Both the position numbers and the translations under genes were made by a program. Positions 9,664 through 30,036 of a stretch of DNA of 64,000 nucleotides are shown piece after piece. A model generated the notes under the pieces. The model saw nothing but the letters and a program-made list of their open reading frames with translations. It had not been told where the DNA came from and ran no database searches. Source of the stretch: Anaerolineae bacterium (GTDB lineage Bacteria; Chloroflexota; Anaerolineae; Aggregatilineales; UBA3940); contig DAOTYH010000069.1 in assembly GCA_034435015.1 (NCBI GenBank), positions 21,312 to 85,311 of the forward strand. The letters are read 5' to 3'. The stretch's first letter is position 1, and each line of letters starts with the position of its first letter.

Positions 9664-9977
9664 CCTTTCTCTTGAGAACGAACACGGGTGAGGGGGGCTG
9701 TGCCAATGAAGTAAGTCTACTCACAGGCCTTCCCTTATTGCAAGCGGGCTGGGGAGCACCTCGCCCGTCTCTGAACAGCCTGAGCGGCACAGCTTTTTAA
9801 GGTTATGGTATGGTTTGAATCAAGCGCGAAGCGGTAGGGTATATCCCCATTCAAAAGGAAGGGGGTTGATGTTACAGTGAAGATGCCTTCATTGTGGGCG
9901 GGGGCCTTTTATCTATTTCAATTATCCCCTGCCATCCTTGGAGGTAACTTCACGAGCGGGATCGTCAAGAAGGACAT

Positions 9978-11000
9978 ATGACCTACCGACATCAGTTTCT
10001 TGTGATCGCCTTGGTTCTCGCCGCCGCATTCTGTCTGTCTGCCTGCGGCGGCCCGGCGTCTGAACCTGCCGACACGGGGAATCGTGACCGCGTCGCTGTT
10101 CAGCTTTCGTGGGTTCACACAATCGAGTTTGCCGGATTCTACATGGCCGAGGAGAAGGGATATTACTCGGAGGAGAATCTGGCGGTTGAATTGCGTCCGG
10201 GCGGGCTGGATGCCGAAGGGAATGTCATCAACGCCATTGACGAGGTTGTTGCAGGCCGCGCCGAGTTTGGAGTGTTTGACGGCGCTTCGCTGACGATAGC
10301 ACGAAACGAAGGGATACCGGTGGTGGCCATCGCGGCCATTTATCAGCGTAGCCCGGTGGCCTTTGTGTCGCTGGCGGAGAAGGGGATTGTCTCACCGCAG
10401 GACCTGATCGGGGCCAACGCGGCGATTGACCTGGCCTCCAGCGGCCCCCTCTTTTTCACCCTTCTGGCCAACCAGCATATTGACCCTGCACGGGTTAACG
10501 TTGTGCAACGCACTGACTTCAGCATTGAGCCGCTCATCAGCGGCGAGACGGATGTGATTGACGGATGGCTCACTAATGAAGTGGTGGCGTTGGAGATGGC
10601 AGGATACGAGAGCAGTATCATCCTGCCTTCTGAGTATGGCCTGGACATGTACCCGAACCTCATTTTCACCACCACCGACATGATTGCCAACCATCCCGAT
10701 CTGGTGGAGCGCTTCCTGCGGGCCACACTACGGGGGATGCAGAGTGCCATTGAAGACCCTAATACGGCGGCGGCGCTGGTGTTGAATTACAACAGCGAAA
10801 GAACCCTTGAAGTGGAGACAGCGGCCATGCAGAGGTCTCTGCCCTTGCTTGCGCCGGCAGGAAGCCGGCCCGGTATGATGCGTGCCGATGTGTGGTATGT
10901 TACCTATCAGCTTTTGGCTGACCAAGGCCTCATTGACAGGACGCTGGACATCAATCAGGTCTATACGATGGAGTTTCTTAACAGGATTTATGGCGGGTAG
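9978..11000 (+). CDS. Lipoprotein, NMT1/THI5-like (NitT/TauT-family) ABC substrate-binding protein; orphan, with no cognate permease or ATPase nearby
   Basis: A lipobox-type signal peptide is present (LVLAAAFCLSACGG). VQLSWVHTIEFAGFYMAEEKGYY is typical of the NMT1/THI5-like SBP fold. The gene ends 21 nt before the giant kinase gene. Confidence 0.8.
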   Translation: MTYRHQFLVIALVLAAAFCLSACGGPASEPADTGNRDRVAVQLSWVHTIEFAGFYMAEEKGYYSEENLAVELRPGGLDAEGNVINAIDEVVAGRAEFGVFDGASLTIARNEGIPVVAIAAIYQRSPVAFVSLAEKGIVSPQDLIGANAAIDLASSGPLFFTLLANQHIDPARVNVVQRTDFSIEPLISGETDVIDGWLTNEVVALEMAGYESSIILPSEYGLDMYPNLIFTTTDMIANHPDLVERFLRATLRGMQSAIEDPNTAAALVLNYNSERTLEVETAAMQRSLPLLAPAGSRPGMMRADVWYVTYQLLADQGLIDRTLDINQVYTMEFLNRIYGG

Positions 11001-11021
11001 CTGTCCGCCGGGGGAGACGCT

Positions 11022-14000
11022 ATGAGTGTGACTGCGTCGTCAAACAAAGAGAGCCAGGTGGAACTGCCCTTACACCGGCAACTCCGCTGGAATCTGGTGT
11101 TTTACTTCGTTTTGCTGGCTGTATTGCCATTAGGGATAGTTGTTTCTATCCTGCTGGCGCGGACCAGCATACAGAGCAGGGAACAGGTCGTTAACCAGCT
11201 TGAGTCGGTGGCGGCACTCAAAAGCCAGCAGATCTCAAACTGGCTGTCTGATGCCGGGATGGCGATGGATACCATCCTAGCCGGACAGGGCCGCCAGAAC
11301 CTGTTTGCTGAGTTGGCCTTCGCTCCTGTAGTGGATCGCACCAAACAGGAGACAGCCAATGCTATTCTGGCGGAGGCTGTTCAGGCGAATGCCAACTTCG
11401 CTGAGCTGTTCCTGTACAACATACGCGGCGAAGTGATCGCTTCCTCTGACCCCAATCAGATCGGGAAGGTGGTCGCGCGTCAGCCGTTCTTCAGCGCCAG
11501 TCTGGCGGGAAATGTGGTTCAGCCGCCCTACTATGAACTGCGCACCGGCAACCTGACGCTGATCATTACCCGGCCTGTGCGGTCATCAAACGGCAGTATC
11601 ATTGGTGTGCTGGCAGGCAGGCTGAGTCTGGATATGCTGGCCAATCTCATGGCCGAGCGTACCGGCCTTGGCGAGACGGGTGAAACCTATCTGGTCAGCG
11701 CTGAGAGTAACTACCTGCTGACTCCCAGCCGCTCTGAGGGCTATCCGTTGACACGTGCCTATCACAGTGAAGGCATTGATGCGGCCCTGCGGGGCGAGAA
11801 CGGCGTCGGCCTCTACTATGATTACCGAGATCCGCCGGTGCAGGTACTGGGTGCTTATCGGTGGGTGCCGGAGCTTCAGGCCGCCCTGCTGGCTGAACAG
11901 GACCAGGCCGAGGCGCTGGCTGATGCGGTCCGGGCGCGCAACTTCAGCATTGGGTCGGCGATATTGGCGGCGATGGCGGCAGTAGCGGTCGGCTACCTGA
12001 CCGTCTCACGAGTCACCCAGCCTGTTACCGTTCTAACTCAGACAGCAACCCGCATTGCTGAAGGCGACCTGAGCGAGCGGGCGGAGGTCAAGGAAGAAAA
12101 CGAGATCGGTCTGCTGGCCTCTGCCTTCAACACGATGGCTGATCAGTTGCAGGATATGATCGGCTCGCTGGAACACCGCGTCGAAGCCCGCACGCGCGAC
12201 CTGCAGGTCGCGGCGGAGGTGTCACAACAGCTTACTTCCCTGCTTGATCTGGATCAGCTACTGCCCCAATTGGTTGAGCTGACGAAGAGCAGTTTCAGCC
12301 TCTACCATGCCCACGTCTATCTGCTGGACGAGGCACGCGAGTGGCTGATCATGACGGCTGGCGCGGGCGAAGCCGGGCGGATCATGAAGGAACACGGGCA
12401 CAAAATCCCTCTGAACGCTGAGCGCAGTCTGGTGGCCCGTGCGGCCCGTGAGCGTGAAGCCGTCATCATCAGCGACGTGCTTAAGGAGCCGGACTTCCTG
12501 CCCAACCCCCTCCTGCCGCAAACCCGTTCTGAGATGGCTGTGCCGATGGCTCGGGGCGAGGAAGTGATCGGCGTGCTGGACGTTCAGTCCGAACAGGTGG
12601 ACCGCTTCTCTAAAGATGAGATGCTGGTCATGACCACGCTGGCCGGTCAGGTGGCAGTGGCGGTGGAGAATGCCCGCGCCTTTGCTCAGCTTCAGAAGGC
12701 GCAGGAAGAAACGCAGGCCCTCCTGCTCGAGCTGGCCCAGCGGGATATGTTCTCCGTCGGTACATCTCGTATTGCTACCAGCCTCCTGAAAGGCGGTCTG
12801 AGCGAGCTTAAGAACGCGCTGGAGACACTGGGGCAGATCACAAGTGTCAGCCGGGTGTATATCTTTGAGAACTTCACCAACCCTGCCGGCGCGTTGTGTA
12901 TGCGCCAGACGCATGAGTGGGTAGCGGAGGGAATCACCCCCCAGATTGGCAATGAGGAATTGCAGTCCCTCCCCTATGATGCCTTGCCCCACCTGCGCGA
13001 TGCCCTAAGCCGGGGCGAGGTCTTTAAGGGGCTGGTGCGTGATCTGCCAGAGCCGGAACACGGATTGATGGCCGGGCAGGACATCCGCTCAATGGCGGTA
13101 CTGCCCATCTATATTGGAGAGGAATGGTACGGCTTCATCGGCCTGGATGACTGCGAGCAGGAACGCGAGTGGTCTCCGCTGGAGATCGAGCTGTTACAGA
13201 CAGTCAGCACCGCGATCTCCTATGCCATCTCCGGCGCCCGCCTGCTCAAGCGGACGCAGGATGCACTGGCACAGGTAGAGACCCTCTATGCCATGAGCCG
13301 GGCCTTCATTGGCGCACGGGGGCCGCAGGAACTGCTGGAGGCGTTTGTTGGGTTGAATGTGTCCTCCGGCGCTTACAACGCCTACCTGAACTACATCCAC
13401 TTTAATCAAGACGGCATGCCGGAGTGGTCTGAGGTGGCCGGCAATGTGACGAGGGTGCCGGTGGCAGTTGATCAGCCCATCGGCACCAAGCGGCGTATCA
13501 CCTCCGCCGCGGCCCAGCAGATCCTCTCCGGCGAGCGCGGGATCACGGTGATCGCCGACAGCGAGGCGGAAGGTGAGGCTGTCAATTCTCCGTTTGTCGA
13601 GATGCTCCGTGCCCTCAAGATGCGTTCGGCGGCGGTTATACCTCTTGTCCCGCCCGGCGGAAACCTGCTGGGAACGATTACCCTGACATGGCCGGAGCCG
13701 CATCAGGTAAGCGAGCAGGAGATACAGCTTTACGAGGTTGTAGCGCCTCAGATGGCGACCATACTCGAAAACCTGCGGCTGTATGAGGAGACGGAGGCGT
13801 CCCGTAAACGGTTCGAGGACGTGGCCCTCAGCTCGTCTGACTGGGTGTGGGAGACAGACGCAGAGGGGCGCTACACCTACTGCTCGGAGCGTGTGAGGGA
13901 TGTGCTGGGCTACGCGCCGGAGGAGGTGATCGGCAGAACCCCCTTTGATTTTATGATCCCAGGTGAGGCTGAGCGGGTGCTGAATCTGTTCCGTGATATC

Positions 14001-17000
14001 GCGGCCAACCGGCGGCGTATCGTTGACTTGGAAAACTGGAACTATCGCAAAGACGGCACGGAGGTCTGCATGCTGACCAGCGGCGTGCCGATTCTGGATG
14101 CCGGCGGCAACCTGCTCGGCTATCGCGGTGTTGACAAGGACATCACCCGCCAGAAGAACTTCGAGCGGCGGCAGAACCTCGCCTATGAACTGGGTCAGGA
14201 GCTGGCAACCCTGCTTGATCTCGACACGGTGCTTCAGCGGACGATAGCCCGTTTGAGCGAAGCGTTCGGTTACTACCATGCGCACATCTACCTGCTGGAC
14301 GAAGATGGCGCTTACCTGTCGGTCCGTGAGGGGCTGGGTGAGGCGGGCCGGGTGCTGAAGGAGCAGAAGCACCGCATCCCGCTCCATGCCGAGAAGAGCC
14401 TGGTGGCCCGTGCGGCCCGTTCGTTGAAGCCGGTGATTGTTAACGACGTGTCGCAAAACCCTGACTTCCTGCCTAACCCCCTGTTGCCGGAGACGCGCTC
14501 TGAGGTGGCCGTACCTCTGTTCGTAGGCCAGCAGTTGCTGGGGGTGCTGGACGTACAACAGAACAGCGTCAATGCCTTCGAAGAGGACGAACTTCGTATC
14601 CTGCTGATCATTGCTAACCAGCTTGCGGCCTCAGTTGCCAATGCCCGCCTGTTTGAGCAGACGCAGGAGGCCTTGGCTGAGACGCAGACGCTGTATCAGG
14701 CCAGCCAGAAGTTCATTCAGGCAGGCGGCCCTGAGGATGTTCTGAGGGCTCTGGCGGACATTGTGCCTTACCGCGACACGCTTGGCGTGCTGTTGTTCTA
14801 CTACGATGTGGACGAAGAGGGCCAGCCGATATGGGCGGAGCTGGCGGCACAGGTTCAGATCAGCGGCGAGCCTGCTATGAGTGTCGGCACGCGCTTCCCT
14901 GTTGCCGACCTGATGTTGACGCGCTGGCTGATCGAGGACCCCTACCGTCCGCAACACATTACCGACCTGCTGGATGCCAGCAATGAGGCTAGCGTAGAGA
15001 TTGCCCAAAGCGTACCGATAGGCGGAATTCGGTCTATTGTGGCTATTCCCCTGACCATTGGCCGCCGCCGTTTAGGCGCGGTTGCCCTGACATGGCAACA
15101 GCCGCGTGAGTTCGATGAGCGGGAGCTTCGTCTTTACGAAACGCTTGGCCCGCAGGCGGCGGCCCTGCTGGAGAGCCAGCGCCTGCTGATGGAGACCAAG
15201 ACTTCTGAGCAGTTGGTCCGCTCGGTGATTGATGCCAGCACCGACTGGATCTGGGCTAAAGACCGCAACTTCCGCTTCATTCTGGCCAACCGTATCATGG
15301 CTGATCAGCTTTACGGCCTAACGCCTGAGGAGATTGTCGGCAGGGATGACTACGATTTCGCCCCGAAGGAGCTGGTTGACGGCGACCCCTCACGTGGGAT
15401 TCGCGGCTTCCGTGTTGATGATGAGGCCGCTCTAAGGGGAGAGACAGTCCACAACCCCTATGATGTGGTACAGTTCAAAGATGGCTCTGAGCATATTCTG
15501 GACACGATCAAAGTGCCGCTGTACGACGCCGAGGGGAACATCATTGGCGTGCTGGGCGTGGGCCGTGACATCACCGAGCGCGAACGCACCCGCCGCCGTC
15601 AGCAGGCCGCTTATGAACTGGGCCAGCGGCTGGCCGCCCTGCTTGATCCTGAGGAACTGCTCAAGGAGACGGTCAACCGTCTGGCTGAGACCTTCGAGTA
15701 TTACCATGTGCATGTGTACTTGCTGGATGAAGAGGGGCAACGGTTAGTCGTCCGCGAGGGTCTGGGGCAGGTCGGCCAGATGCTGAAGGAGATGGGACAT
15801 GCCATCCCGCTGGATGCCGAGCGCAGTCTGGTGGCCCGCTCTGGCCGTACACTGGAGCCGGTCATCGTCAACGATGTGACTGAAGACCCCGATCACCTGC
15901 CCAACCCCCTCCTGCCGCTTACGCGCTCTGAGGTGGCTGTTCCGCTGATCGTCGGTTCACGGCTGGTGGGCGTGCTGGACGTCCAGCAGAAGGAAGCAGG
16001 GGCATTTGACGAGGATGAAATCCGGACCCTGTCCATCATTGCCAATCAGCTTGCAGTTGCCCTGGCCAACGCTCAACTGTTTGCTGAGAATGCCCAGCGC
16101 CTTGCCATCATAGAGAACTCTGCTAACGCAGTAGCGTTGGGTGATCTGAACGGCGGGTTTATCTATGGCAACCCAGTCCTGCGCGGGCTGTTGGGTGATA
16201 TACCAGCCGAAGAGGTGCGCCGTCATAAGTTTGCCGATCTGGTTGATCCGGAGACCCGGAGGTACGTAGCGGAAACCATCATGCCCCTTCTGCATGAACG
16301 GGGCAGATGGCACGGCGAGGCGACGCTGTACCGCAGTGACGGCTCTCCCTTCCCGGCTGAGGTAACGCTCTTCCTCATCCATGATGAGCAGGGACAGCCC
16401 CGCAACATCGCCGCCATCATCACGGACATCACTGAACGCAAGCAGGCTGAGGAGGCCCGGCGTCAGCAGGAGCAGTTGCTCCGCCTGATCATTGACACCA
16501 GCCCGGACTGGATTTTCGTTAAGGACCTCCAGTACCGCTACATGCTGGTCAACAAGGCCTTTGCTGAGTACTACGGCCAGCGTACCCCTGAGGAGATGGT
16601 GGGCAAGGATGACTACGATCTGGGCACACCGGCCTACCTGATCGAGGGTGACCCGGAGAAGGGCATACGCGGTTTCCGTACCGATGACCGGGCTGTGCTG
16701 GAGCAAGGGGAAACTATCTTCAACCCCTACGATGTGGTGAACTACGCTGACGGCACACTCCATGTGTTTGAAACTGAAAAGCTCCCCCTGCGGGATACAA
16801 CAGGGGAGGTGATCGGTGTGCTGGGGCTGGCCCGTGACGTAACCGAGCGTGAGGAGGCACGCCGCCGCCAGCAGGCCGCTTATGAGCTGGCCCGGCAGTT
16901 GACTACCCTGCTCGATGTGGATACCTTGCTCCGTGAGACACTGGTCCGCCTGAAAGAGACCTTCGGCTACTACCATGCTCACGTGTATCTGCTGGATAAG

Positions 17001-18185
17001 GAGTACGGCACCAAGCTGGTGGTGCGTGAGGGCCTTGGCGAGGCAGGGAAAATACTCAAGGAGATGGGGCATACCATCCCTGTAGATGCTGAACGTAGTC
17101 TGGTGGCCCGCGCGGCCCGTACACTGGAGCCGGTGGTGGTCAATGATGTGACCCAGAGTCCTGACCACCTGCCCAACCCCCTGTTGCCGGAGACGGCCTC
17201 TGAGGTGGCTGTGCCGCTGGTGCTGGGCGACAAGCTGTTGGGCGTGCTCGACGTGCAGGACAGCCGGGTGGGGCACTTTGACGAAGACGAGGTGCGTACA
17301 CTGCTCATCGTGGCCAACCAGCTCGCGGTGGCGCTGTCGAACGCGGCCCTGTACTTGGAGCAGTTGGAGACTGCCGAGCGGCTTCGTGAGCTGGATAAGC
17401 TCAAATCCGAGTTTCTGGCCAACATGAGCCATGAACTGCGTACCCCGCTCAACTCGATCATCGGCTACTCGGAGTTGTTGATTGACGACCTGGGCGACAC
17501 ATTGGATGAGATGTCGCTCGAAGACCTGAAGGCCATCCACTCCAGCGGCAATCACCTGCTGATGATCATCAATGACATCCTTGACCTGTCCAAGATTGCG
17601 GCGGGCCGCATGGAACTGAATAAGATGGCGGTAGACATCCCCGCCTTCCTGCCGCAGATAGCGGATATGTCGCGCGTGCTGTTGAAGGACAAGCCGGATG
17701 TCGAACTGCGGCTGGATATGCCGGATGCCCTGCCGGCGCTTCAGGCTGACCCGGTACGCCTGCGCCAGATCGTCTGGAATCTGCTCAGCAATGCCATCAA
17801 GTTCACCGATCATGGCTTTGTCCGGCTGTCGTGCTGGGCAGATAGCGATTGGATGTACATTGCTGTACAGGATACGGGCGTTGGCATTCCGCCGGAACAT
17901 CATGAGACAGTGTTCGATCAGTTCCGTCAGGTGGACGGCTCGGCAACCCGCAAAGCAGGCGGCACCGGGCTGGGCCTGACTATCTCGCGGCAGTTGGCGC
18001 GTCTGCATGGGGGCGACATCGAATTGGAGAGCGAGGTTGGCAAGGGAAGCCTGTTTACCCTCAAACTGCCTCTTGAGGGGGCTGTACAGCCGGCTGTAAC
18101 TCCCGCTGAGGAGTCAGCGGACGGAGCAGGCGGCAATGGCGCTAGGCGCGAGGCTGAGCGGGAAGCAAAGGTGACAGGCGACTGA
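11022..18185 (+). CDS. Giant multi-sensor histidine kinase: TM, Cache-like periplasmic domain, TM, HAMP, multiple GAF and PAS domains, HisKA, HATPase
   Basis: Two TM helices flank a periplasmic domain of about 260 aa. A HAMP domain follows (EGDLSERAEV...AFNTMADQL). Four near-identical GAF cores (YYHAHVYLLDE...SLVARAAR...PNPLLPETRSEVAVPL...GVLDVQ) and several PAS domains are present. The H-box is MSHELRTPLNSI. N/G boxes are NAIKFT and GTGLGLTIS. Confidence 0.95.
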   Translation: MSVTASSNKESQVELPLHRQLRWNLVFYFVLLAVLPLGIVVSILLARTSIQSREQVVNQLESVAALKSQQISNWLSDAGMAMDTILAGQGRQNLFAELAFAPVVDRTKQETANAILAEAVQANANFAELFLYNIRGEVIASSDPNQIGKVVARQPFFSASLAGNVVQPPYYELRTGNLTLIITRPVRSSNGSIIGVLAGRLSLDMLANLMAERTGLGETGETYLVSAESNYLLTPSRSEGYPLTRAYHSEGIDAALRGENGVGLYYDYRDPPVQVLGAYRWVPELQAALLAEQDQAEALADAVRARNFSIGSAILAAMAAVAVGYLTVSRVTQPVTVLTQTATRIAEGDLSERAEVKEENEIGLLASAFNTMADQLQDMIGSLEHRVEARTRDLQVAAEVSQQLTSLLDLDQLLPQLVELTKSSFSLYHAHVYLLDEAREWLIMTAGAGEAGRIMKEHGHKIPLNAERSLVARAAREREAVIISDVLKEPDFLPNPLLPQTRSEMAVPMARGEEVIGVLDVQSEQVDRFSKDEMLVMTTLAGQVAVAVENARAFAQLQKAQEETQALLLELAQRDMFSVGTSRIATSLLKGGLSELKNALETLGQITSVSRVYIFENFTNPAGALCMRQTHEWVAEGITPQIGNEELQSLPYDALPHLRDALSRGEVFKGLVRDLPEPEHGLMAGQDIRSMAVLPIYIGEEWYGFIGLDDCEQEREWSPLEIELLQTVSTAISYAISGARLLKRTQDALAQVETLYAMSRAFIGARGPQELLEAFVGLNVSSGAYNAYLNYIHFNQDGMPEWSEVAGNVTRVPVAVDQPIGTKRRITSAAAQQILSGERGITVIADSEAEGEAVNSPFVEMLRALKMRSAAVIPLVPPGGNLLGTITLTWPEPHQVSEQEIQLYEVVAPQMATILENLRLYEETEASRKRFEDVALSSSDWVWETDAEGRYTYCSERVRDVLGYAPEEVIGRTPFDFMIPGEAERVLNLFRDIAANRRRIVDLENWNYRKDGTEVCMLTSGVPILDAGGNLLGYRGVDKDITRQKNFERRQNLAYELGQELATLLDLDTVLQRTIARLSEAFGYYHAHIYLLDEDGAYLSVREGLGEAGRVLKEQKHRIPLHAEKSLVARAARSLKPVIVNDVSQNPDFLPNPLLPETRSEVAVPLFVGQQLLGVLDVQQNSVNAFEEDELRILLIIANQLAASVANARLFEQTQEALAETQTLYQASQKFIQAGGPEDVLRALADIVPYRDTLGVLLFYYDVDEEGQPIWAELAAQVQISGEPAMSVGTRFPVADLMLTRWLIEDPYRPQHITDLLDASNEASVEIAQSVPIGGIRSIVAIPLTIGRRRLGAVALTWQQPREFDERELRLYETLGPQAAALLESQRLLMETKTSEQLVRSVIDASTDWIWAKDRNFRFILANRIMADQLYGLTPEEIVGRDDYDFAPKELVDGDPSRGIRGFRVDDEAALRGETVHNPYDVVQFKDGSEHILDTIKVPLYDAEGNIIGVLGVGRDITERERTRRRQQAAYELGQRLAALLDPEELLKETVNRLAETFEYYHVHVYLLDEEGQRLVVREGLGQVGQMLKEMGHAIPLDAERSLVARSGRTLEPVIVNDVTEDPDHLPNPLLPLTRSEVAVPLIVGSRLVGVLDVQQKEAGAFDEDEIRTLSIIANQLAVALANAQLFAENAQRLAIIENSANAVALGDLNGGFIYGNPVLRGLLGDIPAEEVRRHKFADLVDPETRRYVAETIMPLLHERGRWHGEATLYRSDGSPFPAEVTLFLIHDEQGQPRNIAAIITDITERKQAEEARRQQEQLLRLIIDTSPDWIFVKDLQYRYMLVNKAFAEYYGQRTPEEMVGKDDYDLGTPAYLIEGDPEKGIRGFRTDDRAVLEQGETIFNPYDVVNYADGTLHVFETEKLPLRDTTGEVIGVLGLARDVTEREEARRRQQAAYELARQLTTLLDVDTLLRETLVRLKETFGYYHAHVYLLDKEYGTKLVVREGLGEAGKILKEMGHTIPVDAERSLVARAARTLEPVVVNDVTQSPDHLPNPLLPETASEVAVPLVLGDKLLGVLDVQDSRVGHFDEDEVRTLLIVANQLAVALSNAALYLEQLETAERLRELDKLKSEFLANMSHELRTPLNSIIGYSELLIDDLGDTLDEMSLEDLKAIHSSGNHLLMIINDILDLSKIAAGRMELNKMAVDIPAFLPQIADMSRVLLKDKPDVELRLDMPDALPALQADPVRLRQIVWNLLSNAIKFTDHGFVRLSCWADSDWMYIAVQDTGVGIPPEHHETVFDQFRQVDGSATRKAGGTGLGLTISRQLARLHGGDIELESEVGKGSLFTLKLPLEGAVQPAVTPAEESADGAGGNGARREAEREAKVTGD
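12205..17362 (+). repeat. Intragenic duplicated sensor modules inside the giant kinase
   Basis: GAF cores lie at about 12205-12690, 14173-14660, 15600-16088 and 16870-17362. Variant GAF-like modules lie at about 13255-13790 and 14665-15190. PAS-GAF units lie at about 15235-16088 and 16495-17362. Nucleotide strings recur, for example CTGGTGGCCCG(T/C)GCGGCCCGT at about 12431, 14401 and 17101. Confidence 0.8.
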
Positions 18186-18192
18186 GAATTCA

Positions 18193-18217
18193 GGGGGCGG
18201 GGATGCACCCTGCCCCC
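18193..18217 (+). other. GC-rich intercistronic hairpin between the kinase and the ThrC-like gene
   Basis: GGGGGCGGGG-ATGCA-CCCTGCCCCC forms a 10-bp stem with one G-U pair. No T-tract follows, so it is not a classical terminator. Confidence 0.4.
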
Positions 18218-18237
18218 GGCTAACTATCAAGGCGGAC

Positions 18238-20316
18238 ATGGCAAAACTATCACCCTACTTTACCGGCGTGGCCTGTCAGCAGTGCGGTCATACCATGCCT
18301 CCCTCCCTCACACGGGCTAAGTGTGAACGGTGCGGCTCGCCATGGTTGGAGGCTCAGTATGATTATCAGGCGGTTGCGGCCCTCTGGCCGGATGCGCTGG
18401 CCGGGCGCGGCAAGACCATGTGGCGCTATCAGGAGCTGTTGCCTGTCGTGCCGGAGGCGCGGATCAGCATGGATGAGGGCTGGACGCCCTTATTGAAGGC
18501 CAAGGAATTGGGGCATCAGCTTGAGCATAGCCGGCTGTACATCAAAGATGAGCGCCAGTCGCCGACCAGTTCTTTCAAGGATCGGCAGGCGGCCCTGACC
18601 ATCTCAGCGTTGAAGGCGGCCCGTATTAAAGAATGCGTGATCGCCTCGACCGGCAACGCCTCGACAGCCTATGCGGCCTACTGCGCCCGTGCCGGAATCA
18701 AATTGTGGGTGTTTGTGACCAGCCTTGTGCCGGCAGAGAAGATGCGCGAGGCGGCCTTGTACGGCGCTGAGGTGATCAAGATCACCGGCACCTATGACCA
18801 GACAAAGGCCATTGCCGCCGACTTTGCCAAACGGCGCGGCCTGTACTTCGATACGGGGGCGAAGGGCATAGTCGGCAAAGAGAGTATGAAGACCATTGCC
18901 TTCGAGATCGTCGAGCAGTTGGGCTGGCGTGCCCCTGACTGGTATATCCAGTCCGTCAGCGGGGGGATCGGGCCGATTGGCGTCTGGAAGGGGTTTGTAG
19001 AACTCAAGCGCATGGGCCTGATCAAGAAACTGCCCCGTCTGGCGATCATCCAGTCGGAGGGATGCGATCCGATGGCACGCGCCTTCGAGGCTGACCGCGA
19101 GACTGCTGAGCCGGTGACGCCCCGCACGGCCATCACGATCCTCTCGACCGGTGACCCGGGTTTTGCCTATACCTTGCTGTATCGGGCGGCTAAGAGCAAC
19201 GGCGGTGTGATTACCTCCGTACCGGACCGGGATGCCTTCCGCGCCCTGCGCAGGCTGGCCCGTGCGGAGGGGATGTCGGTTGAGCCGGCAACCGGCGTGG
19301 CCTTTGCCGGTCTAGAGGCACTGCTGACCGAGAATGTGATCAAGCCCCGCCATACGGTGGTGGTCAATGCCTCCGGCCACACTTTGCCGGTCGAGAAGTT
19401 CGTGATCGAAGATCAGGCCATCGTTGATATTGATGTCAACAGCAAGCTGGCCGAGCAGTGGGGGATGCGGGAGGAAGGCCTCAGTGCGGCGCTGGAGCAT
19501 CTGGATGAGAAGATCACCCGTGTGGTGGTCATTGATGACAGCCCGCATGACAGCCGCCTGATCCGCCGACTGCTTCAACGGCATCGCTCGTATCGTGTGT
19601 TTGAAGCCAATGAGGGCAAAACAGGCCTTGAGCTGGTACGCGAGCGCCGCCCTGACCTGATCATTTTGGATTTGATGATGCCGGATATGGACGGCTTTGA
19701 TGTGCTGAGTGCCCTCAAGGCCGACCCCCAGACGGCACGTATCCCTGTCATTGTGGTTTCCGGCAAGACCTTGACCACTCAAGAGCGTGAACGGTTACAG
19801 GATCAAACCGTCTCGGTGTGGCTCAAGGGGAGCTACTCGACCCACGATCTGGTCGATCACATTGTGCGTCAACTGGGTGAGCCGGGCGTCTCGGCGGCGG
19901 TCACGCCGGATGCAAGCGGCACTCCCGAAGGCAAACGCCGGCCTGCGGTGCTGGTCATTGATGACAGCCCGCTGGATGCCCGGCTGGTGCGTCGTACACT
20001 GGAATCACGCGGCATGTACCGTGTGCTTGAGGCCCGCTCAGGCGAGCAGGCTCTGGCAATGATTGAGGCAGACACTCCCGACCTGATAATCCTTGACCTG
20101 ATGTTACCCGGCATGGACGGCTTCCAGATACTCGAACGCCTGCGCTCCAATCCAGCCGCCCGTGATCTGCCGGTTGTTGTCCTGAGTGCTAAGGAGTTGA
20201 CACCTGAGGAACAGGCCCGCCTTGCCAAGGGGCGGGTGGAGTCTACGTGGGCGAAGGGCGCAACGGATCGTGCGGCGTTACAGGAACATATTGTGAAGGT
20301 AATTGAGGAAGTATAG
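18238..20316 (+). CDS. Threonine-synthase-like PLP-dependent enzyme (N-terminal zinc ribbon) fused to two C-terminal response-regulator receiver domains
   Basis: CQQCGH...CERCG is a zinc ribbon. TSSFKDRQA contains the PLP-lysine motif, and ASTGNAS and SGGIGPIG also fit a ThrC-type fold. Two REC domains follow (VVVIDDSPHD...DLIILDLMMPDMDG...VVSGK and VLVIDDSPLD...DLIILDLMLPGMDG...VLSAK). Confidence 0.85.
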   Translation: MAKLSPYFTGVACQQCGHTMPPSLTRAKCERCGSPWLEAQYDYQAVAALWPDALAGRGKTMWRYQELLPVVPEARISMDEGWTPLLKAKELGHQLEHSRLYIKDERQSPTSSFKDRQAALTISALKAARIKECVIASTGNASTAYAAYCARAGIKLWVFVTSLVPAEKMREAALYGAEVIKITGTYDQTKAIAADFAKRRGLYFDTGAKGIVGKESMKTIAFEIVEQLGWRAPDWYIQSVSGGIGPIGVWKGFVELKRMGLIKKLPRLAIIQSEGCDPMARAFEADRETAEPVTPRTAITILSTGDPGFAYTLLYRAAKSNGGVITSVPDRDAFRALRRLARAEGMSVEPATGVAFAGLEALLTENVIKPRHTVVVNASGHTLPVEKFVIEDQAIVDIDVNSKLAEQWGMREEGLSAALEHLDEKITRVVVIDDSPHDSRLIRRLLQRHRSYRVFEANEGKTGLELVRERRPDLIILDLMMPDMDGFDVLSALKADPQTARIPVIVVSGKTLTTQERERLQDQTVSVWLKGSYSTHDLVDHIVRQLGEPGVSAAVTPDASGTPEGKRRPAVLVIDDSPLDARLVRRTLESRGMYRVLEARSGEQALAMIEADTPDLIILDLMLPGMDGFQILERLRSNPAARDLPVVVLSAKELTPEEQARLAKGRVESTWAKGATDRAALQEHIVKVIEEV

Positions 20317-20341
20317 CAGGCAGTCGTGAGTGAGGAAGCCT

Positions 20342-20860
20342 ATGGCTAGGATATTGGTTATTGAGGATGATCCCCATAGCGCAGACATCGTGGCCCGGGT
20401 ACTCAGGCGGCGGGGACATGAGGTTCTGCACGCCAGTGAAGGGCTGACAGGTTTGAAGATCGCCTCGCAGGAGCAAATTGATTTGGTACTGCTCGATCTG
20501 GGCCTGCCGGACATCGGGGGGCATACCATCGCCGCGCTGATCAACCGCATCCCCGGCAATATCCCGGTGGTTGCAGTGACGGCCAGTACCGACATGGCCA
20601 CCCAGAAGCGCGCCATGTCGTATGGGTGTGACGGCTACATCACTAAGCCGATTGATACCCGCGCTTTTCCCGATCAGGTTGCCCAGTTCATTCGTAGTCG
20701 AGAGAACGGTTCTCCCTCTGAAGGGCAGGACAGCCTGCCGGCGGAGTCTGTTCAGGAAAGCGAGAGTCAGCAGAAGCCCGCAGGGGCCAGCACGGAAGGC
20801 GAAGAGAAGGCGGCAACGCAAGCCAGTCCCAATGGTCAGGGCAAGGCAATTATTTACTGA
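20342..20860 (+). CDS. Single-domain response regulator (receiver) with an acidic/Ser-rich C-terminal tail
   Basis: MARILVIEDD...DLVLLDLGLPDIGG...VTAS...ITKP. GAGG lies 6 nt upstream of the ATG at 20342; the track start at 20330 is a GTG. Confidence 0.85.
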   Translation: MARILVIEDDPHSADIVARVLRRRGHEVLHASEGLTGLKIASQEQIDLVLLDLGLPDIGGHTIAALINRIPGNIPVVAVTASTDMATQKRAMSYGCDGYITKPIDTRAFPDQVAQFIRSRENGSPSEGQDSLPAESVQESESQQKPAGASTEGEEKAATQASPNGQGKAIIY

Positions 20861-20915
20861 TTATTTACTGAGATGAGAAAGCAGCCTTCCAGACCTTCCG
20901 CTAACTGGAGAAAGG

Positions 20916-21335
20916 GTGATGAGCAGAATCTTGTACGTGGAAGATAACTTCCAGAATTATCGGCTGGTGATGCGCATGCTTGCGGCGGAGAAAGATCAGG
21001 CGTATGAGATCTGTCAGGCGCCGGATGGCGAAAGCGCCCTCCGCATGGTAGGGGAATTTCAGCCCGACCTGATCCTGATGGACATTAACCTGCCCGACAT
21101 AGACGGGATGGAGGTCACCCGCCGCATCAAGGCCGATGAGCGGCTGAGCCGTATTCCCATTATTGCGCTGACTGCCAATGCCATGGTCGGTGACCGGGAG
21201 CGGTATATGGCCGGCGGGTGCGACGGCTACCTGCGCAAGCCGTTCAGCCGGTCCGAGTTGCGCGAGGTGCTGGATCAATTCCTGCATCACAACGGGGATG
21301 CGGCCAGAGTGCTCAAGGAGAGCAATCAGGCGTGA
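20916..21335 (+). CDS. Single-domain response regulator (CheY-like receiver)
   Basis: RILYVEDN...DLILMDINLPDIDG...ALTANAM...GCDGYLRKP. Confidence 0.9.
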   Translation: MMSRILYVEDNFQNYRLVMRMLAAEKDQAYEICQAPDGESALRMVGEFQPDLILMDINLPDIDGMEVTRRIKADERLSRIPIIALTANAMVGDRERYMAGGCDGYLRKPFSRSELREVLDQFLHHNGDAARVLKESNQA

Positions 21336-21380
21336 TCCCTGTTGCCTTGCCATCCTTTACCAATGGGGGAGAGACAGCTC

Positions 21381-21782
21381 ATGCCGTCCGATGAGGAAAC
21401 CGGCAGAACGTACACCATCTTGCTGATCGAAGATAACCCAAACAACGCCCGTCTGATGTGCCGCGTGCTGGAGCGCCATAACTTCACGGTGCTTCATGCT
21501 GAGGACGGAGAAACAGGCCTGCAGATGGCTTTTGCCCACCGGCCTGATCTGATTCTGCTTGATCTGGGCCTGCCCGATGTAGATGGCCAGAGTGTGGCAG
21601 GGATGCTCAAACAGCCCGATTCCCTGCCCGATACTCCCCTGGTTGTTGTCACGGCATGGCCCGCTGAGACAGCCCGCGCGATGGTCGAGGCTTATGGATG
21701 TGAGGGGTACATCCCCAAGCCGATTGACACGCGCGAGTTCCCCTTGCAGGTTGCCGGCTATCTCAACCGCCCTAAGCCCTAA
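21381..21782 (+). CDS. Single-domain response regulator (receiver)
   Basis: YTILLIEDNP...DLILLDLGLPDVDG...VVTAW...IPKP. The start is uncertain: TTG 21342, ATG 21363 or ATG 21381. The last has an upstream GGGGGAGAG. Confidence 0.8.
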   Translation: MPSDEETGRTYTILLIEDNPNNARLMCRVLERHNFTVLHAEDGETGLQMAFAHRPDLILLDLGLPDVDGQSVAGMLKQPDSLPDTPLVVVTAWPAETARAMVEAYGCEGYIPKPIDTREFPLQVAGYLNRPKP

Positions 21783-21809
21783 GCGGTTTCAGCAGGGAAG
21801 GGGCGCGAC

Positions 21810-22658
21810 GTGAATCTGGTCCCGGCCAGCCGGTACACTATTCAACAATTAACTGAAGCCTATAATCAGACACGGGTGGATTATCTGGTCCCTATGCCTA
21901 TGAGCGCCCACCGTCTGATGGAGTATATTCAGGTCTATGATGTCTCGCTGGATGACTCGGTCGTGGCGGAAGAAGGGGGTGAGATACTGGGCTTGTGTAT
22001 GCTGGGAGTGCGCGGCGCATGGGGCTGGGCTACGCGGCTGGGAGTCCTGCCAACCTGCCGCCGTCACGGGGCGGGGCAGGCTCTGATGGAGTATGTCATC
22101 CAACGGGCTGTTGAACGGGGATGTCAGGTCGTCTATCTGGAAGTGATCGTCGGCAACGTGCCGGCTTATAGGCTGTTCACCAAGCTGGGCTTCCGCGATG
22201 TGCGTGAACTGCTGGTCCTGCGCCGCCCCCCCGGCCTGCCGCATGCCTCTAGTCCGCCGCCTGCCATGTTGACATGGCTTGACCCTTCCCAGACACTGCT
22301 CCGTGCGGCGGCCCGCGACTGGCGGCCTGCGTGGACCAATCAGACCGAGTCGCTGGCCAACGCCCGGACGGTCGGAGCCTTGCATCTGATTGATCAGGCT
22401 ACTCAGGCCAGCGGGTGGATCAGCTACCAGACCTCGCCGCTTCAACTCCGCCGTGTGCTGATCGCTCCTGACCCGGGCCACGAGGCCGCGCCGGCCTACA
22501 GCCTGCTCTATCATCTGCACAGCCGCTTCCCTTTGCTGGACACAGTAGCGGAGAATGTGCCTGCCGACTCCCCTCATCTGCCTGACTATAAACGGCATGG
22601 CTACGTTGAGTCGTTCCGGCGGCTGGAAATGGAACTGCCGCTCGGCCCGCCCCCCTGA
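21810..22658 (+). CDS. GNAT-family N-acetyltransferase-like protein
   Basis: VLPTCRRHGAGQALMEYVIQRAVERG...YLEVIVGNVPAYRLFTKLGFR is GNAT motif A/B. The start is a GTG. Confidence 0.7.
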   Translation: MNLVPASRYTIQQLTEAYNQTRVDYLVPMPMSAHRLMEYIQVYDVSLDDSVVAEEGGEILGLCMLGVRGAWGWATRLGVLPTCRRHGAGQALMEYVIQRAVERGCQVVYLEVIVGNVPAYRLFTKLGFRDVRELLVLRRPPGLPHASSPPPAMLTWLDPSQTLLRAAARDWRPAWTNQTESLANARTVGALHLIDQATQASGWISYQTSPLQLRRVLIAPDPGHEAAPAYSLLYHLHSRFPLLDTVAENVPADSPHLPDYKRHGYVESFRRLEMELPLGPPP

Positions 22659-22710
22659 TGGAGAAACGGATAAAAAAACAGGGGCGCGCACGCCCCTGTT
22701 GCATGTCCTG

Positions 22711-23880
22711 TTATGACCTCTCAGGCGGGTGGTGCGAGTTCAGCGGCAGATGGATCGAAAAGATACTCCCTTTGCCTAGTTCGCTTTGTACGCTGATGTC
22801 GCCGCCGTGCAGTCGTATCAGGCCGCGGGCGATGGTCAGACCCAGTCCGGCACCCTGCTGTTCCATCTTCTGACGGTCAACCTGATGGAAGCGGTCAAAA
22901 ATCTGCTCAAATTGTGATGGGTCGATCCCAATTCCCTGATCGTGCACGCGGATGACAGCCTGATCGCCTTGTGTGAACGCATCAACCAGGACGTAACCCG
23001 GCTCGCCCCGTTTGGAGAACTTAATGGCATTGTCCACCAGCCGCAAGAGCGCCTCTGCTAGGTAGTTGGACATACACCAGACCGTTAGGTCTTCAGATAC
23101 GCGGTTTTCAAGCGTGACGTCCCGCTCTTCGGCGGCCTGTTTGAGTTTGCCGAAAACTTCCCACACAATCGGGCGGACTTGTGCAGGTCCCTGCCGGACT
23201 TCGATCTCCATCTTAAGCATGCCGCTGTCCAAGCGGACAACCAGCATCAAGTCCTCGATCAGCCGGACCAGCCGCTCGGCCCCGCGCTGAACGCCGTCGA
23301 GCATCTCTTTCAATGACTGCTCGTCCAGCTCGTGATGCTGTTCTTGGAGCAGATTGACATACCCATAGATGTAAGACAGAGGGGTGCGCAGTTCGTGGCC
23401 GAAGATGGTGATCAACTGCTGTTTCATGCGCTCGACATCAGCCTGAGTGGCAGACTGAATCTCATGGACCCGCTTGAGCCGTGCCTGAATGGCAACCAGC
23501 AGGTCCTCCGGCTCGAAAGGCTTGGTCACGTAGGCATCAGCACCCAGCCTGATCCCCCGCCGAACGTCAGACTGCTGGCCAAGCGCCGATAGAAAGATAA
23601 ACGGGATGGCCGCCCATTCCTGCCTCTGGCGCACCGCCTCAAAGAACTCGTATCCGTTCATGTCGGGCATCATGATATCGGCTACCACCAGATCAGGAAG
23701 GCAGGTCTCCATCACGTCGAGAGCTTGATGCCCGTTGAGGGCTGTGATGACGTTGTATCCATAGAGCCGCAGGAGGTCAGATGTGCCGTCCAGAATGGCA
23801 TCATCATCATCAACCAGCAGGATGGTAGTTGGCCGTCCCCCTTCTTCTCTGGCTGAGACCAGTTCAGGGTTAATGTTCAC
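22711..23880 (-). CDS. Hybrid response regulator-histidine kinase (REC, HisKA, HATPase)
   Basis: TILLVDDDD...DLVVADIMMPDMNG is the receiver. The H-box is GHELRTPLSYI. HATPase motifs are DNAIKFS and GAGLGLTIA. Confidence 0.9.
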   Translation of the reverse strand: MNINPELVSAREEGGRPTTILLVDDDDAILDGTSDLLRLYGYNVITALNGHQALDVMETCLPDLVVADIMMPDMNGYEFFEAVRQRQEWAAIPFIFLSALGQQSDVRRGIRLGADAYVTKPFEPEDLLVAIQARLKRVHEIQSATQADVERMKQQLITIFGHELRTPLSYIYGYVNLLQEQHHELDEQSLKEMLDGVQRGAERLVRLIEDLMLVVRLDSGMLKMEIEVRQGPAQVRPIVWEVFGKLKQAAEERDVTLENRVSEDLTVWCMSNYLAEALLRLVDNAIKFSKRGEPGYVLVDAFTQGDQAVIRVHDQGIGIDPSQFEQIFDRFHQVDRQKMEQQGAGLGLTIARGLIRLHGGDISVQSELGKGSIFSIHLPLNSHHPPERS

Positions 23881-23992
23881 AGAGTGCTCCTCGTTCCAAC
23901 CTGTCTGATGCCTAGATCATCGCACATTCAGAGGGATGGCGAAATGGGGATTTACCCCCATGAGGAGCTTCGTGATAGACCGTATCAGGAGG

Positions 23993-25012
23993 TTACCACC
24001 GCACCACGATTCGCGTGCCGGGTTGTCCGGCCTCCGGGTTAGAGCGTGTAGAGTAGGCGTTGTAATCTGCTATGGGCGTTGTCCAGCGGAAGACCCACTG
24101 TGCCGACGCCGGCGGCAGGTTGACACAGCCGTTGCTGTGCCGCCGCCCGTAGTCGTTGTGCCAGTAACAGCCATGTGTCGCGGCCCAACTGGCGGTGAAA
24201 TAGCATACCCACGGAATGCCGGGCAGGTTGTACGCTCCTGCCCCCAGCCCGCCGGTCATGCGCTGGCCATGACGCTTATCGCGCACGCGGAACTCGCCGG
24301 CGGGGGTAGGGGTATCCGGCATGCCGGTAGAGACGCGGGCTGAGAACACCTCGTTGTCACCTTCGTAGGCGCGGAGCATCTGCTCGCCGATCCGGACCAC
24401 AATGAGCTTATCTTCCGGCGGCACATCCGGTGAGAGAGGCGCGGCCTCCTCCGGCGGGATGATCCGCACATGGCCGGCCTTAATCCAATATGAGCCGCCG
24501 TAAATCTCGCTGACCCGATAGTAATCATTCTCTACCCCGCTGATGCGGTGAACCGTGCTGTAAAACATACGCTGGCGGCGCGGCCCATCATCAGCGGGAG
24601 CGCCCCTTGCCCATGTCATCGGGACAGTGACCATGCCCCATGCCCCGTTCTCCCCGACAGGCACAGTCGGGTTATTAGGCTGGTTGTCTACCGGCTGTAC
24701 CCATGAGGAGTACAGGTAGCCGGCCTCTGTCTTCAGCCATGTGGCGTTGGTTGAATACAGGCCGTTGCCTGTTACGGCTTCCTGCACCGTGACTACGTCG
24801 TTCCAATATAGAAAGCCGGCGGCGCTGGCACGCCAGTCCGGCTCGGTGTAGGCGGTCATGACGTTCAACAGGATGCGCCCCATCGGAGAGCCGTCCCAGT
24901 TTGTGATGGCTCCACCTTGCAGAGACGGCCTATAGTCAACCGCCCGCAGGCCGATGCCCATCCCGGCCATTCCGACCGATTTCAGAAAGCCGCGCCGTGA
25001 CAGATTCCTCAT
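23993..25012 (-). CDS. Secreted L,D-transpeptidase (YkuD domain) with a Tat-type signal
   Basis: The N-terminus MRNLSRRGFLKSVGMAGMG is a twin-arginine signal. The C-terminal catalytic motif is HSNGCVNL. Confidence 0.85.
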   Translation of the reverse strand: MRNLSRRGFLKSVGMAGMGIGLRAVDYRPSLQGGAITNWDGSPMGRILLNVMTAYTEPDWRASAAGFLYWNDVVTVQEAVTGNGLYSTNATWLKTEAGYLYSSWVQPVDNQPNNPTVPVGENGAWGMVTVPMTWARGAPADDGPRRQRMFYSTVHRISGVENDYYRVSEIYGGSYWIKAGHVRIIPPEEAAPLSPDVPPEDKLIVVRIGEQMLRAYEGDNEVFSARVSTGMPDTPTPAGEFRVRDKRHGQRMTGGLGAGAYNLPGIPWVCYFTASWAATHGCYWHNDYGRRHSNGCVNLPPASAQWVFRWTTPIADYNAYSTRSNPEAGQPGTRIVVRW

Positions 25013-25056
25013 CTTCCTCTCGTCTTTATCCCTTCTTTACGCTAAACTCTGGCCCT

Positions 25057-25740
25057 ATGATACCACAAGCTGTCATCTGGGATATGGACGGAGTCCTGAT
25101 CGACTCCGGCGATCTATACTATCAGCTCGTCTGTGAGGTTTTCTCCAGCGAGTTTGGCAGAACCGTCACCCGTGAGCAGTTCAAGGCGGTGTTTGGGACC
25201 AACAACCTCAGTGTGATCCGAAGCCTGCTGGGGTATACCCCTCCGCCTGAATTAGAACAGCGGCTCTCGGACAGGGTGGATGAGGAGTTCTGCCGGTATG
25301 CCCCCGAACATGTCCGGCTGATGCCGTGTGCGCTGGAGACAGTGCAGATGCTCTCTGCGGCTGGCTGGCGGCAGGCGATTGCTACCTCTTCGTCGCACCG
25401 CAATACGCGGCTGGTTACGGAGCTGTTGGGGTTGAATCGCTGGATTGAGGTCTTTGTATGTGCGGAGGATGTCGCACGGGGCAAGCCTGCGCCGGATTCC
25501 TTCCTGCTGGCGGCTGAACGGCTGGCGGTCAAGCCTGAGCGGTGTGTCGTCGTTGAAGATGCGCCGGCAGGGATACAGGCGGCCCGTCTGGCCGGCATGG
25601 CCTGTGTCGGTGTGGCTACCACGCAGACGCCCGCCGCACTGGCACAGGCTGATCGCGTGGTCGGCTCGCTGGCTGATCTGGCCCTGCCTGACTTTGAAGC
25701 CCTGGTGAACCGCCGATCTAACGTCTATGTTAACGGCTAG
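25057..25740 (+). CDS. HAD-superfamily hydrolase (beta-phosphoglucomutase/phosphatase-like)
   Basis: VIWDMDGVLIDS is HAD motif I (DxDGxL). TSS, KPAPD and VVVEDAPAGIQAA are also present. The ATG at 25057 is preferred over the longer track ORF. Confidence 0.85.
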   Translation: MIPQAVIWDMDGVLIDSGDLYYQLVCEVFSSEFGRTVTREQFKAVFGTNNLSVIRSLLGYTPPPELEQRLSDRVDEEFCRYAPEHVRLMPCALETVQMLSAAGWRQAIATSSSHRNTRLVTELLGLNRWIEVFVCAEDVARGKPAPDSFLLAAERLAVKPERCVVVEDAPAGIQAARLAGMACVGVATTQTPAALAQADRVVGSLADLALPDFEALVNRRSNVYVNG

Positions 25741-25757
25741 TAGACGGCGGCCTGCTG

Positions 25758-26906
25758 TTATTCCATCGGGGCGGCAGGGAGCCAGAAGACGAAGCGCGTT
25801 CCGACTCCGCCCTCTCCCTCCTCCGCCCAGATTTTCCCGCCATGTGCGTTGATGGCTGAGCGGCAGTAGGCCAGCCCCAGCCCAAATCCGCGACTGCCCT
25901 GACGCCGCGCCTCTACCTGCGCAAAGCGGTCGAAGACATGCTCGCGATACTCAGGCCGGATGCCCGGCCCATTGTCGTTGACGGCCACAAAGACCGCTTC
26001 ACCGTCTGACCATGCGCTGACGGTGACCTGCCCGCCAAGGGGTGTGTATTTGAGGGCGTTGTCAATCAGGTTGGTCAGTACGCGGTCTATGCGCTGACGG
26101 TCAGCCCGGACGGCTGGCAATGGCCCGGCAGGAGGGTTGAACCCCAGGTTAATTCGGGAGGCCCATGCCATCGGCTTGAGCCGCTCGACTATCTCGCTCA
26201 GCAGGGCCAGCACGTCTAAGCTCTCCAGCTCCAGCTCGGCCTCGCCCCCTTCCAGCCGTTCGACATCCAGCAGAGCTTCGACTAATGTCTGCATCCGTTG
26301 TGCGCCGCCGGAGGCCATTGCCAGGAAGCGGGTCGTCTCTTCCTGCAACTGGAGGGAGGGGTCCAGCTCCAGCATAGCGAGCGCCATCGAGATCAGTGTC
26401 AGGGGGTTACGCAGATCGTGGATGATGAATCCCACTGTTTCCTGCCGCAACTGCATAATCTGGGCTAACCGCTCAGCCTCAGACGAGAGGGATGCCAGCC
26501 GCTCGAACAGTTCGTGTTCTGCCGCCGCGGCACGGACGCGGCTTTGGTCGGCGGCCAGCAGGCGGTCAATGAGGGCCTGCAAGACCATCCGCCGGAAGGC
26601 GGCATCCCCCTCAAACAGACGCCAGAAATCATCGTGGTTAATGGCCAACAGGGTAGTCGGTTTAAGAGCCAGCACGGAGGCTGAGCGGGGGCTGTCGCCG
26701 AGCAGGCTGACCTCACCGATCAGGTCGCCTTCTGAGCGGTAGCCCAGTACCAGCGGCGCATCCGTATCTGCCCCTTTGATCACGGCGACCTGCCCCTTTT
26801 CGATCATATACATCGTGTCGCCGGGGTCGTTCTCTCGAAACACATACTCCCCTGCCTGATAGTGCTTGGGGGTGGCGTAGTCAGCCCAGCGTGGGTTTTC
26901 GGCCAT
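25758..26906 (-). CDS. Cyclic-nucleotide-binding domain fused to a histidine kinase
   Basis: The N-terminal cNMP-binding fold shows FRENDPGD...GDLIGEVSLL...RSASV. This is followed by IIHDLRNPLT (H-box) and HATPase motifs DNALKYT and GFGLGLAYC. Confidence 0.9.
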   Translation of the reverse strand: MAENPRWADYATPKHYQAGEYVFRENDPGDTMYMIEKGQVAVIKGADTDAPLVLGYRSEGDLIGEVSLLGDSPRSASVLALKPTTLLAINHDDFWRLFEGDAAFRRMVLQALIDRLLAADQSRVRAAAAEHELFERLASLSSEAERLAQIMQLRQETVGFIIHDLRNPLTLISMALAMLELDPSLQLQEETTRFLAMASGGAQRMQTLVEALLDVERLEGGEAELELESLDVLALLSEIVERLKPMAWASRINLGFNPPAGPLPAVRADRQRIDRVLTNLIDNALKYTPLGGQVTVSAWSDGEAVFVAVNDNGPGIRPEYREHVFDRFAQVEARRQGSRGFGLGLAYCRSAINAHGGKIWAEEGEGGVGTRFVFWLPAAPME

Positions 26907-27010
26907 AGCTGATTCCTTGTGTTCTATATTTGTGGAGACATTTTACACGGATTCTACAGCTACTGCCTGAGGAGAATTGGGATTATACTATGTAGATAGG
27001 AGCGAGAATC

Positions 27011-29849: not shown

Positions 29850-30036
29850 GCCGGCGATTGTAACCCATTACGGGGCCGGATGCACTGCTTGCGTGGGAAG
29901 TAACAGGGCGGGTAAAATGGAATATATCGCACAGTCACCTGTCCTAGGGACGGGCCGGTCCGTCCGATTACCCGTTTATCTCAATTTGATCCTTTTCTGA
30001 CCGGATTTGTGGTCAGAGGTAACAGGTTCTAACAGG

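Follow-up and report, generated by a model that had tools for sequence, protein, structure and literature searches.

A threonine-synthase-like enzyme domain fused to two receiver domains behind a sensor kinase in Anaerolineae: a candidate response regulator with a PLP-dependent output

The 64,000-nucleotide stretch analysed here (the window; contig DAOTYH010000069.1 of assembly GCA_034435015.1, from an Anaerolineae bacterium) carries a co-directional gene cluster in which one gene joins a threonine synthase (ThrC)-like, pyridoxal phosphate (PLP)-dependent enzyme domain to two receiver (REC) domains. The protein begins with a zinc ribbon, continues with a fold-type II PLP domain and ends with REC1 and REC2 (Table 1). 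An earlier note on this DNA had described it in the same way, as a zinc ribbon and an SFKDR-bearing, ThrC-like PLP domain followed by two complete receivers, and each part of that description was borne out. Pfam PALP matched residues 76–380 (E 2.8e-66), covering positions 1–295 of the 295-position model, and Pfam Response_reg matched two stretches (E 3.3e-43). Among NCBIfam models, the top matches of the fusion protein were threonine synthase models, and its top match among REC families was the PleD model. The note had also called the architecture unusual; the architecture is as it described, but it is not a one-off, as it is widespread in Anaerolineae.

The fusion of a ThrC-like domain to receivers is a real gene family of Anaerolineae (Chloroflexota). 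An identical protein is encoded on three independent assemblies (ENA, JGI and Logan), and a search of 5.8 billion proteins listed at least 120 homologues, nearly all full-length, 50–68% identical and all carrying both PALP and Response_reg. The named sources of these homologues are Chloroflexota (Anaerolineae, Aggregatilineales, Thermofonsia, Aggregatilinea lenta), the last being the only species with a name among the annotated ones. When one genome was scanned for each GTDB species, at least 589 species-level genomes proved to encode a relative, the best match being 61% identical to the window protein. The best 80 of these at least 589 are all from Chloroflexota, mostly from the class Anaerolineae, and include members of Anaerolineales, Aggregatilineales, Caldilineaceae, Ardenticatenales, Thermoflexales and Brevefilum. 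The number of receivers varies: 70 of 87 loci encode two and 17 encode one, and a few family proteins have three. An assembly or frameshift artefact that merged a ThrC-like gene with a response-regulator gene, a concern raised in the earlier note, was considered and can be excluded with near certainty. Nothing was found in its favour, and it is ruled out by the three assemblies, by the homologues and genomes just counted and by a conserved helix (residues 414–426) that spans the junction and leads into REC1 in both the alignment and the AlphaFold model.

Residues expected of a working protein are conserved in every part of it, as judged from an alignment of 113 family members. In the zinc ribbon, C29 and C32 are invariant and C13 and C16 are present in 112/113. 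The PLP-binding lysine, K114, lies within SFKDR, and the other residues that bind PLP or the substrate carboxylate are also retained (S137-T138-G139-N140, the S241-G-G-I-G-P loop, E349-P-A and S379). Among these, K114, S137, G139, N140, S241, G243, G245, P246, E349-P350-A351 and S379-G-H-T are invariant in 113/113, while T138 (110/113) and G242 (112/113) are nearly so. Both receivers have the acidic pair, the phospho-acceptor aspartate, the Ser/Thr and the lysine. REC1 has D434, D478 and K530 invariant and S or T at position 508 in 113/113; REC2 has K673 invariant, D620 in 112/113 and S or T at position 650 in 112/113. Both the PLP part and the receiver part thus look functional from their sequences, and the PLP domain should still bind its cofactor and an amino acid. 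REC2 is 47% identical to REC1 (tblastn). Because family members with a single receiver keep one of the REC1 type, REC1 appears to be the core receiver and REC2 to have arisen by internal duplication.

Structure prediction agrees with a ThrC fold. The AlphaFold model of the fusion protein has a mean predicted local distance difference test score (pLDDT) of 88.9, with most of the PLP domain above 90, and shows low-pLDDT, flexible linkers at residues 393–413 and 549–564. The top Foldseek matches were ThrC structures (TM 0.85 on the target, 28–32% identity), and the closest PDB entries by phmmer were solved threonine synthases (5e-42 to 1e-32).

The substrate pocket is where the family departs from canonical ThrC. 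Five residues of Thermus thermophilus ThrC (T88, N154, S155, R160 and N188), which reportedly bind the phosphate of O-phosphohomoserine (Omi et al. 2003), are identical in the five solved ThrCs that we compared, four of them bacterial (Thermus, Aquifex, Mycobacterium and Bacillus) and one from a plant (Arabidopsis; PDB 1UIM, 2ZSJ, 2D1F, 6CGQ and 1E5X for the five), and in the stand-alone ThrC of A. lenta. All five are replaced in the window protein (A141, T206, G207, G213 and G242, in the same order). Across the 113 members, T88 becomes A or K, N154 is variable, and S155, R160 and N188 each become G. The GNAGN loop of ThrC is SGGIGP in the window protein, and the loop from N154 to R160 has one residue inserted. 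In place of the canonical set, the family has invariant residues of its own (R106, Q117, K/R214 and C276), found within the motifs KDERQxPTSSFKDRQ (R106, Q117), GAKxxxGKESMKT (K/R214), QAVSGGIGP and EGCxPM. Residue 141 (nucleotides 18658–18660), the equivalent of Thermus T88, is dimorphic: 83 of the 113 members have Ala and 30, A. lenta among them, have Lys, a split that could correspond to two specificity subtypes.

The best NCBIfam match, PRK08197, scored the fusion protein at 282.8 bits, below its cutoff of 303, and all remaining ThrC models except TIGR00260 (discussed below) were far under their cutoffs. A neighbour-joining tree built from 123 PLP domains (bootstrap of 100) has a canonical ThrC clade of seven tips (Thermus, A. 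lenta and five representatives) that excludes the window protein with a bootstrap of 89/100. The fused proteins grouped together at 55/100, along with a few stand-alone proteins that have an SGGxGP loop. Taken at the level of sequence, the PLP domain is best described as a divergent paralogue of threonine synthase in which the canonical O-phosphohomoserine phosphate pocket appears to be lost, and the enzyme probably does not make threonine.

Canonical ThrC can be found beside the fusion. A. lenta encodes a separate, 426-aa ThrC with a zinc ribbon 8 kb from its fusion gene; this protein scores 259.7 bits against TIGR00260 (cutoff 167.1) and matches Arabidopsis ThrC at 5e-91. A close homologue of it lies in the flank of three other loci (L010, L012 and L029). 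Within the 64-kb window, tblastn found no other ThrC-like gene. At four Anaerolineales loci where the fusion has a single receiver (L076, at 11974–13194, L072, L081 and L086), a gene of the PRK08197 type directly follows the small REC gene. These neighbours score 571 bits against the PRK08197 cutoff of 303 and carry the motifs FKARG and PTGGGTG; such operons therefore hold two different ThrC-family paralogues. The stand-alone relatives with an SGGxGP loop adjoin other kinds of genes: P0140 (L091) a PylC-like ATP-grasp ligase; P0135 (L090) a radical-SAM/SPASM enzyme, TauE and Fe-ADH; and P0132 (L089) an epimerase and a methyltransferase. These surroundings look like small biosynthetic clusters, which hints at specialised amino-acid chemistry rather than core metabolism.

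The operon that holds the fusion gene, downstream of a sensor kinase gene, is conserved (Table 1). At 44 of the 62 loci with enough sequence, the gene immediately upstream, on the same strand, encodes a kinase core, and at L076 the kinase open reading frame ends at 9976 and the fusion gene begins at 9977. On the other side, at least one small REC gene directly follows the fusion gene at 66/72 loci. An orthologous CheY-like REC (~129 aa) follows it at 63/84 loci, separated from it by a median of 60 nt; the copies are on the same strand as the fusion gene in 83/84 and have intact ED, D, T and KP residues. As the operon behind the kinase is conserved, the PLP enzyme appears to be directly switched by a two-component system. 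The 2387-aa kinase of the window has an N-terminal transmembrane segment with dCache_1 and HAMP, then GAF and PAS repeats, and a C-terminal HisKA (H-box SHELRTPLN) with HATPase, the two making up a core at residues ~2090–2345; it has no receiver of its own.

Table 1. The fusion gene, its domains and the genes and features around it, in window coordinates.
Feature	Position	Strand	Basis
Fusion gene, 692 aa: zinc ribbon, ThrC-family PLP domain, REC1, REC2	18238..20316	+	single ATG-to-stop open reading frame
Cys4 zinc ribbon (C13, C16, C29, C32)	18268..18342	+	alignment of 113 family members
Fold-type II PLP domain, residues ~60-392	18415..19413	+	alignments, AlphaFold, Foldseek
REC1, residues 427-547 (D433, D434, D478, S508, K530)	19516..19878	+	Pfam, alignment, AlphaFold
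REC2, residues 569-691 (D575, D576, D620, S650, K673)	19942..20310	+	Pfam, tblastn, alignment
NMT1/THI5-like solute-binding protein, 340 aa; opens the co-directional cluster	9978..11000	+	Pfam NMT1 4e-49
Sensor histidine kinase, 2387 aa	11022..18185	+	translation, Pfam
Single-domain REC protein with ~60-aa tail, 172 aa	20342..20860	+	Pfam Response_reg 4.1e-24, public gene call
Single-domain REC protein, 138 aa	20919..21335	+	tblastn, public gene call, NCBIfam REC matches
Single-domain CheY-like REC, 133 aa	21381..21782	+	member of the conserved downstream REC group
GNAT acetyltransferase, 282 aa; last gene of the co-directional cluster	21810..22658	+	Pfam Acetyltransf_1 1.7e-18
Hairpin, palindromic and G+C-rich, followed by a T-run	22677..22700	.	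perfect 10-bp stem with 7 GC pairs
REC-HisKA-HATPase kinase, 389 aa, convergent with the cluster	22711..23880	-	Pfam, public gene call

Several further observations concern this neighbourhood. The GAF modules of the kinase are near-repeats of each other ('YHAHVYLLDE...RSLVARAAR...VLDVQ' blocks) interleaved with PAS domains. The sensory array grows and shrinks between loci, as related ones have kinases of anywhere between 820 and 2483 aa. By-eye inspection of the dCache region found no R-x-W-Y amino-acid-sensor motif. Three small REC genes stand in a row in the window, and the third alone is a member of the downstream family that is widely conserved; L006 has the same three-REC arrangement, and the REC-HisKA-HATPase kinase is likewise present there. 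At 28 loci a GNAT gene of this family follows on the strand of the fusion gene. The window's GNAT protein showed generic RimI/YpeA-like similarity only, with no match for its C-terminal extension. The GNAT and REC-kinase genes converge on the hairpin, which is likely to act as a terminator in both directions and to end the operon, and no comparable terminator-like site was seen inside 9978–22658. Beyond it, the region 22711–31500 is dense in signalling genes, including a cyclic-nucleotide (cNMP)-binding histidine kinase (25758–26906, minus strand), a small REC (27011–27529) and a REC-PAS-HisKA_3 kinase from about 30007. A 777-aa open reading frame at 27516–29849 (minus strand), which is a gene in public assemblies, has no Pfam hit on record.

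Considering this evidence together, we favour, with modest confidence, the reading that the fusion protein acts as a response regulator, its output being a PLP enzyme of non-canonical specificity. In this mechanism, the upstream sensor kinase would phosphorylate REC1, and REC2 where present. Phosphorylation would switch activity by altering how the receivers dimerise, which in turn would shift the PLP domain in its quaternary or open/closed state; a REC-driven rearrangement of the dimer is the likely route, as the enzyme family is dimeric and opens and closes around its substrate. The downstream CheY-like REC may compete for, or drain, the same phosphoryl groups. As for the chemistry, because the binders of PLP and the amino acid are kept and the canonical phosphate pocket is lost, we would expect beta- or gamma-elimination or replacement on another, probably still anionic, amino acid rather than housekeeping threonine synthesis. 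We uphold the earlier note's view that the substrate cannot be read from the sequence.

Several points weigh against this reading. The fusion protein does pass TIGR00260, though barely, at 168.4 bits against a cutoff of 167.1 (+1.3 bits). The invariant basic residues R106 and K/R214 might between them supply a new phosphate site, making activity on O-phosphohomoserine possible. 'Threonine synthases' of the PRK08197 type too deviate at several of the five phosphate positions, and because of this the residue argument lowers the probability of O-phosphohomoserine as substrate without removing it. The receivers are C-terminal, which is atypical for response regulators that control an output domain. 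Finally, AlphaFold models the individual domains with confidence but not the packing of the receivers against the PLP domain, given the low-pLDDT linkers and a predicted template modelling score (pTM) of 0.71.

As an alternative, the PLP domain might be an input rather than an output, such that a PLP-bound amino-acid metabolite gates how the receivers accept or release phosphate, and the protein acts as a metabolite-controlled phosphate sink or as a connector in a branched phosphorelay. PLP-fold proteins that act as sensors exist, GabR and CysK being examples. The C-terminal position of the receivers would suit such a role, as would the flexible linkers of the model and a cluster that has further stand-alone RECs and a REC-kinase and no DNA-binding regulator; the conserved PLP and carboxylate binders fit a sensor equally well as an enzyme. 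However, the fusion protein has no HPt or kinase domain with which to relay a signal, REC domains normally regulate the domain to which they are fused, and the stand-alone relatives of the PLP domain occur in biosynthetic-looking, enzyme-like contexts. We consider an input role unlikely. We are more doubtful still that the protein is a threonine synthase after all, either a second, signal-regulated isozyme or the housekeeping enzyme with a lineage-wide REC decoration, its phosphate site rebuilt in a different way. The marginal TIGR00260 score, the rank of ThrC as the top match by both sequence and fold, and the candidate phosphate ligands R106 and K/R214 speak for such an enzyme, but all five canonical phosphate positions are changed, the protein falls outside the canonical clade, its PRK08197 score is below the cutoff, and a separate canonical thrC exists in A. 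lenta and at three other loci. A housekeeping ThrC, which the earlier note had named as the outcome that would undo its idea, was accordingly rejected as our principal explanation on residues, tree position and the co-existing thrC.

The earlier note had further pointed to the neighbouring solute-binding protein and raised, as a speculative idea, a cysteate-synthase-like enzyme of sulfonate metabolism, tied to a binding protein of the NitT/TauT class. What speaks for this is that the binding protein is of the NMT1 family and gives a weak match to SsuA_fam (26.6 bits, cutoff 163.5), and that the stand-alone relative P0135 adjoins a TauE-family gene. Against it, the cysteate synthase model TIGR03844 scores the fusion protein at 122.9 bits, far below its cutoff of 324.9, and the solved cysteate synthase CapA2 (9k3c) is a far weaker match than ThrC (1e-15 versus 5e-42 by PDB phmmer, and rank 16 in Foldseek). 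The binding protein family occurs at only ~3 other loci of the 84, and A. lenta has a sugar-type Peripla_BP protein before the kinase in its place. No ABC permease or ATPase genes lie beside the binding protein, and no sulfonate-pathway genes were seen in the window cluster. As the binding protein is not conserved and the cysteate synthase model is far below its cutoff, the sulfonate idea is unsupported, and we regard it as very improbable. The upstream kinase and the downstream small REC proved to be the more informative neighbours. Because the NMT1 protein is rare elsewhere and replaced in A. lenta, it probably serves this one kinase as an accessory rather than the PLP enzyme, and it may present a ligand to the dCache kinase.

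Comparison with known systems helps to place a response regulator with a PLP output. The fusion protein shares with the ThrCs of Thermus, Aquifex and plants (TIGR00260) the fold, the SFKDR Schiff-base motif, the S-T-G-N carboxylate loop and a Ser/Thr at the PLP N1, and the canonical ThrC of Chloroflexota, as in A. lenta, has the same N-terminal zinc ribbon. It differs from them in the phosphate positions, the SGGIGP loop and the inserted residue, in R106, Q117 and C276, in its C-terminal receivers and in its separate clade. Paralogues of the PRK08197 type (~410 aa) also combine a zinc ribbon with a ThrC-like PLP domain, but they have the FKARG and PTGGGTG motifs, keep the equivalent of Arg160 and lack a receiver. 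Cysteate synthase is likewise a ThrC-derived PLP enzyme of altered specificity and so a precedent for neofunctionalised ThrC paralogues, although it is more distant from the fusion protein than ThrC is and has no REC fusion.

On the regulatory side, CheB and PleD (REC-REC-GGDEF) are similar in that phospho-competent receivers are fused to an enzyme, and the fusion gene adjoins a histidine kinase gene; in the fusion protein, however, the enzyme part is N-terminal and PLP-dependent. Regulatory modules at the C-terminus of fold-type II PLP enzymes are an established theme. IlvA, with its ACT-like modules, and cystathionine beta-synthase, with its CBS pair, carry, behind the PLP domain, one or two small regulatory domains that tune its activity; theirs bind ligands, whereas the modules of the fusion are phosphorylation-driven receivers. 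Both parents of the architecture are thus well known, namely response regulators with an enzyme output and fold-type II PLP enzymes that are regulated through modules at the C-terminus. To our knowledge, no response regulator with a PLP enzyme as its output has been characterised, and full-text literature searches turned up no publication that deals with a ThrC-REC or PLP-REC fusion. A stronger proposal, which we put forward tentatively, is that this is the first response regulator with a PLP-dependent enzyme output, a neofunctionalised member of the ThrC family that is switched on or off through phosphorylation by a two-component system and catalyses a reaction undescribed for that family, in a module that is conserved, along with its own dedicated CheY-like partner, throughout the class Anaerolineae. 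The reaction would be, for example, the making or destroying of a non-proteinogenic or signalling amino acid.

The outputs of two-component systems are nearly always transcription, second messengers or motility. If the reading is true, a direct phospho-switch on a PLP-dependent amino-acid enzyme would be both a new kind of output and a new form of regulation for fold-type II PLP enzymes. Public databases annotate the homologues as 'threonine synthase' or 'pyridoxal-phosphate dependent enzyme', and the family is therefore probably mis-assigned in metabolic reconstructions, which would concern hundreds of species in Anaerolineae, an abundant but poorly cultured lineage. The invariant active-site signature of the family offers a concrete entry point to what may be a new reaction in the ThrC family.

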